From contig JBEKSI010000001.1 in NCBI GenBank assembly GCA_049997835.1, positions 1 to 41,551 of the forward strand: a stretch of 41,551 bases of DNA, in the 5' to 3' direction. Both the position numbers and the translations under genes were made by a program. The notes below the pieces were generated by a model. The model was not told where the DNA came from, did no database searches, and saw only the letters and a list, made by a program, of their open reading frames with translations. This DNA comes from Minisyncoccia bacterium (GTDB taxonomy: Bacteria; Patescibacteriota; Minisyncoccia; UBA6257; GWB1-50-10). Positions 36,127 to 37,643 of the stretch are shown piece after piece (positions within the stretch are counted from its first letter, which is position 1; the number at the start of each line of letters is the position of its first letter).

Positions 36127-36155
36127 AAAAGAGGGGTATTTACCCCTTTTTATTT
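36127..36155 (+). terminator. Intrinsic terminator
   Basis: AGGGG-tattta-CCCCT followed by TTTTATTTATTT. Confidence 0.65.
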
Positions 36156-36160
36156 ATTTC

Positions 36161-36209
36161 CACAATTGGTTTAGCTATGTACTAATATGGCTTAGCTACG
36201 CCAATTGTG
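36161..36209. promoter_or_regulatory. Imperfect 17-bp inverted repeat overlapping the promoter of the HTH-LAGLIDADG-like gene
   Basis: CACAATTGGTTTAGCTA (36161-36177) and TAGCTACGCCAATTGTG (36193-36209) pair with 2 mismatches. The right arm overlaps the extended -10 TGTGATAAT (36206-36214). Confidence 0.6.
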
Positions 36210-36225
36210 ATAATATGTTTAATAT

Positions 36226-36972
36226 ATGAGTGGGAATTTATATTTCAAAAAGGGAAAATTTAAAAGAGAAAGGGAGGCGAGAAAAAAGAGAGAATTTGAA
36301 GCGAAAGTGGCGGCTTTGAACAGTAAAGATTTCAAGTCAACGAGTAAAAAATGGGATAGAGACACAAAATCTCTTTCTAAAGAATTACTTATCGGTCTTT
36401 ATATTAGGCAGAATAAATCAGTAAATGAAATAGGTAAAATATTGAAATGTTCCTCGCATAAAGTGGCATATTGGATGGAGAAATATAAGATTTTAAGGAG
36501 AAACCAAAGTGAAGCAACATATCAGAAACGCAATCCGCTTGGCGACCCCTTTAATTTAATAGAGCCGAAAAGTTCATCCGAAACTGAATTAATGGGCATG
36601 GGATTGGGACTTTATTGGGGCGAAGGCAATAAGTTAAATAAAAACTCAATTAGATTAGGCAATACTGACCCGGCGCTTATAAAAACATTCATAAGGTTTC
36701 TTAATAAATTCTTTAATATAGATCAAAAGAAAATACGTTTCGGCCTTCAAATTTTCAGCGACATAAAACCATCGGAAGCTTTGAGTTTTTGGATAAAAGA
36801 GTTGAAAGTTGATGAATCTCAATTTCAAAAAGTTGTGGTGACACCATCAAGAGGTGCGGGCACATATAAAAAGAAATTAAAATATGGCGTATTGACAGTT
36901 CATTTTAATAATAAGAAACTTAGGAATGTCATTATTAGTAAATTGAAAGATTACGGATATAATGGCGAGTAA
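36226..36972 (+). CDS. HTH plus single-motif LAGLIDADG-like homing-endonuclease-like protein
   Basis: SVNEIGKILKCSSHKVAYWMEKY resembles an HTH. MGLGLYWGEGNK resembles LAGLIDADG blocks such as the LLGLWIGDG recalled from PI-SceI. AT-rich codon usage. The stop codon directly abuts the tRNA. Confidence 0.5.
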   Translation: MSGNLYFKKGKFKREREARKKREFEAKVAALNSKDFKSTSKKWDRDTKSLSKELLIGLYIRQNKSVNEIGKILKCSSHKVAYWMEKYKILRRNQSEATYQKRNPLGDPFNLIEPKSSSETELMGMGLGLYWGEGNKLNKNSIRLGNTDPALIKTFIRFLNKFFNIDQKKIRFGLQIFSDIKPSEALSFWIKELKVDESQFQKVVVTPSRGAGTYKKKLKYGVLTVHFNNKKLRNVIISKLKDYGYNGE

Positions 36973-37232
36973 GCCAATGTAGCTCAGCTGGTAGAGCAAC
37001 TCCATGGTGGAACGCAAATCCCGCCCACCAAAGAAGCAATTCTTTAGTGAATCCCGAATAACGGTTAAAGTCCAAATGGATAAGACCGTGGCATCCCGAA
37101 ACTTTCTAGGGAGGCCCGAACGACTGACAAGGGTGCGCCTCGGGCGCAAAGATACAGTCTAGCCCTCTCGGATAAAAGAAGGAGAGGTGTAAGCGAAGGA
37201 GTAGGTCGGCAGTTCAAATCTGCCCATTGGCT
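36973..37232 (+). tRNA. tRNA-Thr (anticodon GGU inferred) interrupted in the anticodon loop by a 187-nt intron
   Basis: The 5' half is GCCAATG TA GCTC AGCTGGTA GAGC A ACTCC ATGGT. The 3' half is AA GGAGT AGGTC GGCAG TTCAAAT CTGCC CATTGGC T. All four stems pair once 37009-37195 is removed, and the arms resemble E. coli tRNA-Thr(GGU) as recalled. Confidence 0.8.
37009..37195 (+). mobile_element. Group I-like intron (no internal ORF)
   Basis: The 5' exon ends in U and the intron ends in G. P2-like hairpin AAAGAA-GCAA-TTCTTT (37030-37045). GACUG (37122-37126) / CAGUC (37155-37159) form a P7-like pairing, with AAAGAUACAGUC resembling the group I J8/7-P7 (S) consensus and CGACUGACAAGGG resembling the R element. 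Confidence 0.6.
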
Positions 37233-37285
37233 CAATAAAACTTTACAGAGACTAAGTTTTGTTATAAGTTAATAGCTACAAGTTT

Positions 37286-37465
37286 ATGGCCCAAAGCAAA
37301 GTAAATTCACTTAGCGGCAATTTAATACGGCTCCGGTGTTCTGTTTGTAAACACTCTAATTACACGACCCACAAAAATAAAAAGTTGGTTCAGCGGAAAA
37401 TTGAATTCAAGCGCTACTGCAAGTGGTGTAGAAAACACACTCTTCATAAAGAAGCGAAGAAATAA
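37286..37465 (+). CDS. rpmG: Ribosomal protein L33 (59 aa; absent from the ORF track)
   Basis: My own translation is MAQSKVNSLSGNLIRLRCSVCKHSNYTTHKNKKLVQRKIEFKRYCKWCRKHTLHKEAKK. It has CxxC...CxxC and the KHT..KE ending typical of L33. Confidence 0.85.
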   Translation: MAQSKVNSLSGNLIRLRCSVCKHSNYTTHKNKKLVQRKIEFKRYCKWCRKHTLHKEAKK

Positions 37466-37470
37466 GCTTC

Positions 37471-37541
37471 CACCCAACGTCCCCGCTCAGGCTGTCTCCG
37501 GGGCGACGCCCAAGTCTTAGCCTTCGCGAGGACGTTGGGTG
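37471..37541 (-). repeat. Structured intergenic element, copy B
   Basis: A 12-bp perfect outer stem (CACCCAACGTCC / GGACGTTGGGTG) encloses CCGCTCAGGCTGTCTCCGGGGCGACGCCCAAGTCTTAGCCTTCGCGA. The core is identical to copy A over about 44 nt. Confidence 0.85.
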
Positions 37542-37570
37542 TCGCATTTTTATGTTAAGATACTAACGTA

Positions 37571-37641
37571 GGGGGCATATTTCAATGGTAGAATCGCGGT
37601 CTCCAAAACCGCTAATGTAGGTTCGATTCCTACTGCCCCCG
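37571..37641 (+). tRNA. tRNA-Trp (anticodon CCA)
   Basis: GGGGGCA/TGCCCCC acceptor, anticodon loop CTCCAAA, GTAGG-TTCGATT-CCTAC T-arm, discriminator G. Confidence 0.9.
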
Positions 37642-37643
37642 CA

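Follow-up and report, generated by a model that had tools for sequence, protein, structure and literature searches.

What does a free-standing gene that ends exactly where an intron-split tRNA gene begins have to do with the intron? Group I introns of bacterial tRNA genes, of which that in cyanobacterial tRNA-Leu is the classic case, have no endonuclease gene of their own, and the manner of their spread has been debated for decades. The locus described here lies on contig JBEKSI010000001.1 of a Minisyncoccia bacterium (GenBank assembly GCA_049997835.1), a member of the Patescibacteria or candidate phyla radiation (CPR); the window is the whole stretch of 41,551 nt that was analyzed, and coordinates refer to it unless another locus is named. 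In this window, a gene for a 248-aa protein with a helix-turn-helix (HTH) module is followed, with no base in between, by a tRNA-Thr(GGU) gene that is split by an intron without an open reading frame (ORF). An earlier observation on the locus was re-checked from the sequence and extended by comparison with related genomes. We propose, with a probability of about two in three, that the gene encodes a free-standing homing endonuclease that works with the ORF-less intron in what has been called collaborative, or trans, homing. Its conserved C-terminal domain, called the YWGEG domain here after its motif, is most likely a very divergent single LAGLIDADG-like nuclease domain that would act as a dimer.

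The gene and the split tRNA

The coding sequence of this candidate homing endonuclease (36226..36972; forward strand, as are all gene and RNA features of the window given below) was defined from its ORF, its homologues and the ratio of nonsynonymous to synonymous substitution rates (dN/dS). It runs from an ATG to a TAA at 36970-36972, and base 36973, directly after this stop, is G1 of the tRNA, the 5' end of which reads GCCAATGTAGCTCAG. The tRNA comprises 74 nt at 36973-37233 and is interrupted by 187 nt. It was missed by standard ARAGORN and by Rfam at the gathering score and was recovered by the intron mode of ARAGORN, which sets the splice boundary two bases off and so reads the gene as "Arg gcg". 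Its assignment to tRNA-Thr(GGU) and the placement of the intron after U36 and before A37 rest on the U that ends the 5' exon and the G that ends the intron in all 56 homologous split genes, on the presence in this genome of an intact tRNA-Arg(GCG) elsewhere and of no other tRNA-Thr(GGU), and on the intron-less orthologous positions in other genomes, which are tRNA-Thr(GGU); an alignment of 51 sequences agrees. With these boundaries, which combine the ARAGORN result with the alignment of split genes, the 5' exon (positions 1-36) lies at 36973..37008, the intron at 37009..37195, and the 3' exon (positions 37-73) at 37196..37233. ARAGORN also reported "introns" on contigs C7 and C34, which are false positives that merely span adjacent tRNAs.

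Against the Rfam model Intron_gpI (RF00028) the interruption scores 9.7 bits (E = 7), short of the gathering score of 50, and no group I intron reached the gathering score in the window or in four related loci, two of which have this intron. The RNAalifold consensus of 51 aligned split genes nevertheless has the tRNA stems spanning the intron and contains P1, P2, P4-P6, P7, P8, and P9. Compensatory changes occur in 39 of the 65 pairs and support P2, P4-P6, P8, and P9; the U36.G pair of P1 is invariant in all 51 sequences, and P7 is invariant as GACUG/CAGUC (here GACTG at 37122-37126 and CAGTC at 37155-37159), whereas P3 was read by eye only. The intron contains no ORF and, by its comparative structure, is group I-like.

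A preliminary description of the locus had placed an ORF-less group I-like intron in the anticodon loop, the first base of tRNA-Thr(GGU) immediately after the stop codon, and a gene richer in AT than its neighbors. All of these are borne out, the first by the comparative structure despite the low Rfam score and the last by a GC content of 0.30-0.36 across the gene region as compared with 0.42-0.50 in the flanks. Intron-split tRNAs beside such genes escape standard tRNA finders, and the genomes that have them seem to lack tRNA-Thr(GGU).

Docking on tRNA genes

The position of the gene relative to tRNA genes was counted with a strict script in 80 loci from different GTDB species. A tRNA-Thr(GGU) lies at -48 to +218 nt of the gene in at least 71 of them (41 split and 30 intact), and most of the remaining nine are split genes missed by the strict pattern. 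In 35 loci the overlap with the tRNA is exactly 10 nt; the stop codon TAG is then U8-A9-G10 of the tRNA, and the ORF ends in ...LPM, LPR, or LPL. Close orthologues repeat the arrangement of the window, with TAA followed by the same split tRNA, and in distant orthologues of 194-203 aa the last 10 or 38 nt lie within an intron-less tRNA-Thr(GGU). Paralogues are placed in the same way: all 12 that were examined, from four other genomes, lie -23 to +48 nt from a tRNA, which is tRNA-Gly(GCC), tRNA-Arg, tRNA-Tyr (with a different group I intron), tRNA-Met, tRNA-Ile(UAU), or tRNA-Gln, and 11 of the 12 dock on intron-less tRNAs. The whole superfamily is docked on tRNA 5' ends, and the possibility raised in the preliminary description, that homologues might never be found beside introns or tRNA genes, is contradicted by the loci and paralogues counted here.

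The genome under study has a paralogue of its own (contig C31, 6049-6702, minus strand; locus L015, 1366-2082), a protein of 217 aa with an HTH and the motifs LYWAEGNKK...LTNTDP, which overlaps the 5' end of tRNA-Arg(CCU) by 10 nt. A second tRNA-Arg(CCU), on contig C7, is about 72% identical to the one attached to the paralogue, and the paralogue cassette may carry its own tRNA copy. Some loci are irregular at the junction. In one of Sungbacteria type (L011, 3600-3745), two degenerate copies of the tRNA 5' end separate the stop codon of the gene from the real split tRNA-Thr. Paired with a CATCGG(C/T) 3' strand (GCCGATGTA...CATCGG), each copy gives an acceptor-stem-like minihelix, and the two may be scars of repeated repair or insertion events. 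In loci of Saccharimonadia type (L010, 3575-3650; L024, L030, and L035), the ORF reads 38 nt into the tRNA and has the C terminus ...MCRDSS(A/V)GRA...; two of these loci, L010 and its duplicate L024, have a tRNA-Thr(GGU) whose anticodon loop reads UCGGUAA, in which position 33, normally an invariant U, is C.

Association of gene and intron

An even sample of 401 Patescibacteria genomes was used to examine distribution. Members of the superfamily are present in 90 of these and the Thr-type gene in 22 (about 5%), scattered over many families and in each case just before tRNA-Thr(GGU). Four of the 22 Thr-type copies are decayed through six stops, truncation, or a split (given as genome:contig, G233:C2 9533-10210, G389:C6 40610-41129, G036:C14 61822-62465, and G349:C10 136-828), and each is located directly upstream of an apparently intact intron core. 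The scattered presence and the decayed copies indicate a mobile, cyclically lost element and not a housekeeping gene; the GC content, lower than in the flanks, and the identity of 50-60% between members from distant classes also fit a mobile element.

The intron was sought with a composite 24-nt pattern of three invariant blocks that recovers 55 of 56 known cases and gives no matches in the reversed control; it superseded a 15-nt intron-core pattern which, at two mismatches, was as frequent as its reversed control and so useless. By the composite pattern, this intron lineage is present in 25 of the 401 genomes. Gene and intron occur together in 15 genomes, the gene alone in seven, the intron alone in 10, and neither in 369, which corresponds to an odds ratio of 79 (Fisher p = 7e-16, uncorrected for phylogeny). 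An association of this strength contradicts the suggestion in the preliminary description that the gene is the remnant of a separate invasion. Of the 10 genomes with the intron alone, five share a genus with genomes that have both, and in all 10 the split gene is the only tRNA-Thr(GGU) detected by pattern search. The two states can be compared in sister species: G071 has an intron-less tRNA-Tyr, then the Thr-type gene, then the split tRNA-Thr, whereas G018, from the same genus, has a Tyr-type paralogue, a split tRNA-Tyr, and the same split tRNA-Thr with no Thr-type gene and a 22-nt spacer. Gene and intron are separable yet travel together, and the gene is the part that gets lost.

The Tyr-type paralogue of G018 lies 6 nt upstream of the split tRNA-Tyr(GUA) (locus L106, reverse strand, 1865-2139), in which a 192-nt group I intron from another lineage, with the core AAGATATAGTCC, is inserted; G071 has neither of them at its tRNA-Tyr.

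The target-site signature

Anticodon arms of intron-less tRNA-Thr(GGU) genes were taken from the same 401 genomes, and those from gene-less genomes are referred to as naive. Positions 30-40 read CC(A/T)TGGTAAGG in 136 of the 149 naive genes among the matches listed. The canonical site is CC(A/T)TGGT^AAGG, in which the caret marks the point, in the middle of the 11-mer, where the intron is inserted, and the exon halves are canonical in all 56 split genes. In the window, the comparative signature places the left half of this putative target, CCATGGT^AAGG, at 37002..37008 and its right half at 37196-37199. Where an intron-less tRNA-Thr(GGU) stands beside the gene, the site is canonical in only eight of 31 cases (p = 1.4e-13, uncorrected for phylogeny) and in one of six in the unbiased sample. 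In the non-canonical sites, pair 30-40 or pair 31-39 is replaced in a compensatory way or position 32 is changed, and at least six kinds were found (GC..GC, CA..TG, TC..GA, AC..GT, CT..AG, and A32G). The spliced-exon sequence of tRNA-Thr(GGU) carries CCATGGTAAGG, and the stem variants include GCATGGTAAGC, CAATGGTAATG, and TCATGGTAAGA. In the genus g61, GCATGGTAAGC is found in the genome that has the gene and the canonical site in five congeners that lack it; the gene-less congeners of three genomes with gene and intron also have the canonical site. No second intact site was found in any of the 15 genomes that have both gene and intron.

Such a signature is what an enzyme that cuts the uninterrupted DNA site would leave, because carriers would survive either through an intron that splits the site or through a stem change that still pairs. 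An RNA target, as for an anticodon nuclease, was rejected because splicing in intron carriers would yield a canonical tRNA, which would be left unprotected. The protein itself provides no more than a hint. Asp148 is nearly invariant, and its replacement by Asn (LGNTN or LANTN) was found in two of the eight proteins that stand beside an intact canonical site, L023 and L050/L120 (G311), and in none of the 22 genes beside variant sites; the D148N proteins may be inactivated enzymes.

The protein family and its HTH module

The family has more than 1000 members, all from Patescibacteria and all unannotated or "hypothetical", and no description of it was found in the literature; a genome-assembly paper that includes CPR genomes makes a passing remark on group I introns in tRNAs (PMC8172020). 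Members from distant classes are 50-60% identical in sequence. Relative to a 76%-identical orthologue, the protein has a dN of 0.14 and a saturated dS (about 1.5), giving a dN/dS of about 0.09, and is therefore under selection. The majority form has about 195 residues; a Lys/Arg-rich N-terminal helix of 50 residues (36226..36375, family alignment; residues 5-32 helical in the AlphaFold2 model) is present only in the clade of this protein. The conserved core comprises the HTH (aa 52-100), an NPxGDPF linker, and a 130-aa domain with the motifs GLGLYWGEGxK, RLGNTD, GLQIFSD, and GTYRKKxxYGVLTV. Residues Trp131, Glu133, and Gly134 are invariant in 106 sequences from two subfamilies, the second of which, at about 25% identity, has these three residues, Lys217, and a few others in common with the first.

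The HTH module (about aa 52-102; 36379..36531) was recognized with Pfam, PHROG, and BLASTP. In Pfam, the one match of this protein is to HTH_28 and is weak (E = 0.054), and 78 of 106 relatives match HTH_23; HTH types 23, 28, 38, and 7 occur in the family. PHROG 8446 and 7545, families labeled as homing endonucleases, match the HTH segment only, and in BLASTP the HTH repeats of the Vibrio phage VAP7 homing endonuclease are matched at E = 7e-11. By sequence, the tandem HTH modules of this free-standing, Vsr-type, "Hef-like" homing endonuclease are clear homologues of the HTH. The VAP7 protein (L134; NC_048765.1, 103321-104775) is a free-standing "homing endonuclease" of 484 residues encoded between capsid-assembly and tail-tube genes, and consists of three tandem HTH modules of the type found in this family and a Vsr/DUF559-like nuclease domain. 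In a tblastn search of 50,697 phage records, only the HTH module of Hef-like, Vsr-type enzymes was matched, and the YWGEG domain was unmatched.

The C-terminal domain

The putative catalytic domain (aa 103-248; 36532..36969) was characterized by modeling with AlphaFold2, Foldseek, comparison with PF14528, and hhalign. Its GLGLYWGEGNK motif (aa 126-136; 36601..36633) is conserved in two family alignments, and the combination of an HTH-like segment with one such block in a 248-aa protein is as first described, the Pfam match of its own HTH being weak. The only non-HTH Pfam family matched repeatedly by the 106 members is PF14528 (LAGLIDADG_3), with weak matches in 10 of them at E < 1 and a best E value of 0.031. 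An hhalign comparison with 13 genuine CPR LAGLIDADG_3 domains gave P = 0.042, with YWGEG aligned, in the expected register, to the end of the motif formed by G-D-G. The fold search with a full-length model was uninformative, and the domain was re-modeled alone with the 106-sequence alignment, giving a predicted local distance difference test score (pLDDT) of 92 and a predicted template modeling (TM) score of 0.87. LAGLIDADG domains from inteins and homing endonucleases recur among the Foldseek results for this model at TM scores of about 0.4 and with high "probability"; the endonuclease domain of the TliVMA intein (7qsu) has a probability of 0.98 and a TM score of 0.40, and intein-type matches from giant viruses reach 0.41. 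In the model, Glu133 is at the end of a predicted helix (residues 117-131), so that an acidic residue is conserved at the C-terminal end of the motif helix, as in LAGLIDADG proteins, and it is a candidate metal-binding residue. Readings of the conserved residues as PD-(D/E)xK, GIY-YIG, or HUH nuclease motifs were discarded, as the motif order and the predicted secondary structure do not fit them.

On the other side, Pfam gave no LAGLIDADG match for this protein even at E <= 10, NCBIfam gave no match for the 248-aa protein, and a search with the family hidden Markov model (HMM) of the ORFs around 14 genuine CPR LAGLIDADG_3 genes revealed no bridging homologue. The preliminary description had called the block LAGLIDADG-like. 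Its motif and a marginal likeness in profile and fold stand, but the profile search did not bring a LAGLIDADG match beyond the PF14528 and hhalign values given above, and HMM and structure searches came close to showing no such fold. The domain is called LAGLIDADG-like here, its membership being unproven.

The inverted repeat at the promoter

An inverted repeat was found by repeat search at 36155..36215, with arms of 23 nt (36155-36177 and 36193-36215) that are 83% complementary. It covers positions -14 to -60 of the promoter region of the gene, and in its core, CACAATTGGTTTAGCTA / TAGCTACGCCAATTGTG, 15 of 17 positions match. The DNA folds with -12.6 kcal/mol (z = -4.98), and none of 200 shuffled sequences folds as well. 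The 3' arm overlaps an extended -10 element, TGTGATAAT (36206..36214, forward strand), which was read directly from the sequence and lies 11 nt upstream of the ATG. The 17-bp inverted repeat over an extended -10 of the preliminary description is thereby confirmed, with longer arms. A simple -35/-10 scan found no forward-strand promoter in the region of 36206-36214; the promoter is called from the extended -10 and its conservation in orthologues. Boxes resembling TGTGATATAAT are found 7-14 nt before the ATG in many orthologues, implying from sequence a leaderless or near-leaderless mRNA without a Shine-Dalgarno element.

Many orthologues share a dyad of the form ..ATTGG-(N)AGAGC, a loop with TATACTAATATGG, and GCTCT(N)-CCAAT.., which ends at the extended -10 (TGTGATATAAT). 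It abuts the -10 in at least 12 orthologues, with compensatory change in four of the seven consensus pairs. The Tyr-type paralogue in G018 also has a dyad, CAATTGGC..GCCATTTG, in the interval from its -10 to its ATG. We regard the inverted repeat as a candidate operator or structural element. By analogy, it is plausible, and probably the case, that it serves as an operator for autorepression through the HTH, the least supported step of the scheme given below. Three other origins were considered. An origin as a relic or mimic of part of the tRNA, its acceptor stem or its 5' end, was rejected since there is no covariation with the acceptor stem, as was a mimic of the putative target, with which only ATGG is in common. 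A resemblance of the inner arm (TTGGnAGAGC) to the tRNA D-arm, a lead found post hoc, amounts to 9-10 of 10 positions in several orthologues and seven of 10 here, is absent from the Tyr-type paralogue, and was not retained.

Proposed mechanism

From the anatomy of the locus, the protein family, the docking on tRNA genes, the association with the intron, the target-site signature, and the purifying selection, we infer a nuclease activity, a cut site, homing, and autorepression that would be connected as follows. The protein would recognize, as double-stranded DNA, the anticodon arm of an uninterrupted tRNA-Thr(GGU) gene at CC(A/T)TGGT^AAGG, the point of intron insertion, and would cut there. 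Repair from the gene-carrying chromosome would copy the gene, about 36 bp from the cut, and the same event would copy the ORF-less intron, which is collaborative homing; conserved tRNA genes on one or both sides would supply homology between species. The short distance would account for a gene that is pressed against, or overlaps, the tRNA 5' end, because about 36 bp from the putative cut maximizes co-conversion. The target of a carrier would be made uncuttable by the intron that splits it, as in this window, or by compensatory changes in pairs 30-40 and 31-39. After fixation, the gene would decay or be deleted, and the intron would persist because it must stay splicing-competent. Throughout, the HTH would limit expression of the gene through the inverted repeat beside the extended -10.

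Several observations weigh against this scheme. Eight of the 31 gene-adjacent intron-less tRNAs retain the canonical 11-mer, and 13 of the 149 naive genes among the matches listed (about 9%) carry variants. The tests of association ignore phylogeny, with cases that are spread over many families and variants that are heterogeneous. Whether queried with the single protein or with the family profile, Pfam, NCBIfam, and the PDB sequences gave HTH matches only and nothing for the C-terminal domain. With the domain model, Foldseek found no match in the PDB or among viral proteins (BFVD) at E < 0.01, the best values being 0.012-0.018 with a TM score of about 0.4, and OmpA-like and IspF folds score as high as LAGLIDADG domains. 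The predicted topology has an extra helix between strands as compared with the classical alpha-beta-beta-alpha-beta-beta-alpha arrangement, and neither sequence nor model establishes a nuclease fold or family. Finally, the inner arms of the inverted repeat covary between proteins with identical recognition helices, which a hairpin would fit as well as an operator. The suggestion in the preliminary description of an endonuclease for this intron is in accord with the target-site signature, and the gene is tied in evolution to tRNA genes and to this intron (odds ratio about 79).

Alternative explanations

The extreme precision of the tRNA 5'-end boundary across many different tRNAs could reflect site-specific insertion, in which the protein or a host factor, transposase- or integrase-like, directs a gene cassette to the tRNA 5' end, possibly together with its own tRNA copy, and the intron hitch-hikes. 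HTH types 23, 28, 38, and 7 are found in transposases and resolvases, one source labels a homologue "transposase-like", one of two tRNA-Arg(CCU) genes in this genome is attached to the paralogue, and the tRNA-Thr allele of the gene-bearing g61 genome is quite different from those of its congeners. We nevertheless regard this explanation as unlikely. Neither a recombinase nor a transposase catalytic domain can be detected, terminal repeats and target duplications were not seen, and insertion as such predicts neither an anticodon stem that is mutated or intron-split beside the gene when naive genes are canonical nor an odds ratio of 79 with a single intron lineage.

Equally improbable, in our judgment, is a protein that descends from an endonuclease but has been domesticated as a DNA- or RNA-binding factor without nuclease activity, either a regulator of the transcription unit of tRNA-Thr, rpmG, and tRNA-Trp or a "guardian" of the tRNA gene. 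WhiA, a domesticated protein with LAGLIDADG and HTH parts that descended from LAGLIDADG enzymes, sets a precedent. Domestication of the WhiA type (see also PMC3384342) would suit the strong purifying selection (dN/dS about 0.09), the HTH with a dyad at the promoter of the gene, the position at the head of a conserved block of tRNA and ribosomal protein genes, and the unproven nuclease fold. A housekeeping regulator, however, would not be expected in about 5% of the sampled genomes and with decayed copies, and every paralogue docks on a different tRNA. The target-site signature is moreover what a cutting enzyme would select for, and the acidic residue of the motif is invariant. A trans-acting maturase that aids folding or splicing of the ORF-less intron of tRNA-Thr(GGU), the other function suggested in the preliminary description, is very improbable: the strong association of gene and intron, an N-terminal basic helix that could, by the model, bind RNA, and the occurrence of LAGLIDADG maturases in organelles are in its favor, but 10 of the 25 intron-bearing genomes lack the gene, 30 of 71 gene-adjacent tRNA-Thr genes and the tRNAs beside 11 of 12 paralogues lack an intron, and a maturase would not select mutated anticodon stems in intron-less neighbors.

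Neighboring features

On the left, the insert of low GC content is limited by the intrinsic terminator of the upstream NUDIX-like gene (36128..36151, forward strand; terminator scan, a 10-pair stem followed by a T run), from which point the GC content drops. On the right, the gene heads a conserved tRNA-Thr - L33 - tRNA-Trp block, with rpmG at 37286-37465 and tRNA-Trp at 37571-37642. Between these two is a long GC-rich inverted repeat, CCCAACGTCC...GGACGTTGGG (37480-37570), after which comes a -10-like TTAAGATACT; locus L007 has a dyad CCATTGGTAGAGC...GCTCTTCCAATCG at the equivalent place. A hairpin before a promoter may be a general feature of this tRNA and ribosomal protein block.

Relation to known systems

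Collaborative homing has been documented for F-CphI with the psbA intron of cyanophage S-PM2 and for T4 MobE with the defunct I-TevIII intron (PMC3984707, which reviews intron-encoded proteins, PMC2790892, and PMC6083498), and is so far described only in phages. As in these systems, a free-standing gene here adjoins a gene with an endonuclease-less group I intron, the putative target coincides with the intron insertion site, the intron would protect the carrier allele, and gene and intron are co-inherited. The present case differs in its host, a cellular bacterium, and in its target, a tRNA gene where the phage systems target protein-coding genes. The putative nuclease domain is related to neither Endo VII nor HNH, the gene touches or overlaps the very gene that it would target, and the whole superfamily is specialized tRNA by tRNA, mostly without introns; cleavage is here a putative activity.

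Among single-domain, homodimeric LAGLIDADG enzymes, I-CreI, I-CeuI, I-ShaI, and the PF14528 domains of inteins and archaeal introns have, like the YWGEG domain, a motif helix with an invariant acidic residue in its terminal G-E-G, after which come a short hairpin and another helix. The domain is of similar size (about 130 residues), in the model the spacing of its glycines along the helix is that expected where two helices meet in a dimer, and it shares the mobile-element lifestyle in CPR genomes. It differs from them in the lack of a significant HMM match, a TM score of about 0.4, the position of the extra helix between beta3 and beta4, Trp at the first acidic/hydrophobic position of the motif, the fused N-terminal HTH, and a gene that lies outside the intron. 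I-ShaI is a LAGLIDADG enzyme of CPR rRNA introns (PMC11270868), and the literature on such enzymes represented by that paper makes no mention of tRNA-linked or free-standing genes.

T4 SegB and other free-standing enzymes of tRNA clusters (PMC2988022 and PMC13096335) resemble this gene in being free-standing among tRNA genes and preferentially inherited with the adjacent tRNA region. SegB, however, is a phage GIY-YIG enzyme that lacks an intron partner, and its gene is not joined to a tRNA 5' end to the exact base. I-TevI is a transcriptional autorepressor (PMC2988022) and, like the protein described here, a homing endonuclease-type protein with a separate HTH and an operator, a candidate one here, that overlaps its own promoter. 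It is an intron-encoded GIY-YIG enzyme whose operator mimics its homing site, whereas the dyad of the present locus (CAATTGG...CCAATTG) has no convincing likeness to the putative target.

Implications

The family represents a concrete partner for tRNA introns, an external endonuclease-like gene with a putative target where the intron is inserted. Confirmation of this role would carry collaborative homing beyond phages, to the genomes of cells and to RNA genes. It would also give an annotation to hundreds of CPR genes now labeled "hypothetical" and account for the unusual anticodon-stem variants of tRNA-Thr in CPR as alleles that confer resistance. As a source of compact and naturally diversified DNA-targeting proteins, the family could be of further use. 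A wider proposal, which we make tentatively and with clearly less confidence than that for the gene itself, is that the YWGEG domain defines an unrecognized homing-endonuclease family, either a new fold or an extreme offshoot of LAGLIDADG, whose subfamilies are each directed to the anticodon-arm DNA of one tRNA gene. If this is true, it would supply the long-missing mobility engine of ORF-less group I introns in bacterial tRNAs, the tRNA genes of CPR bacteria would be a battlefield of "tRNA-gene homing", and intron gain and anticodon-stem remodeling would be the two routes by which their hosts escape.

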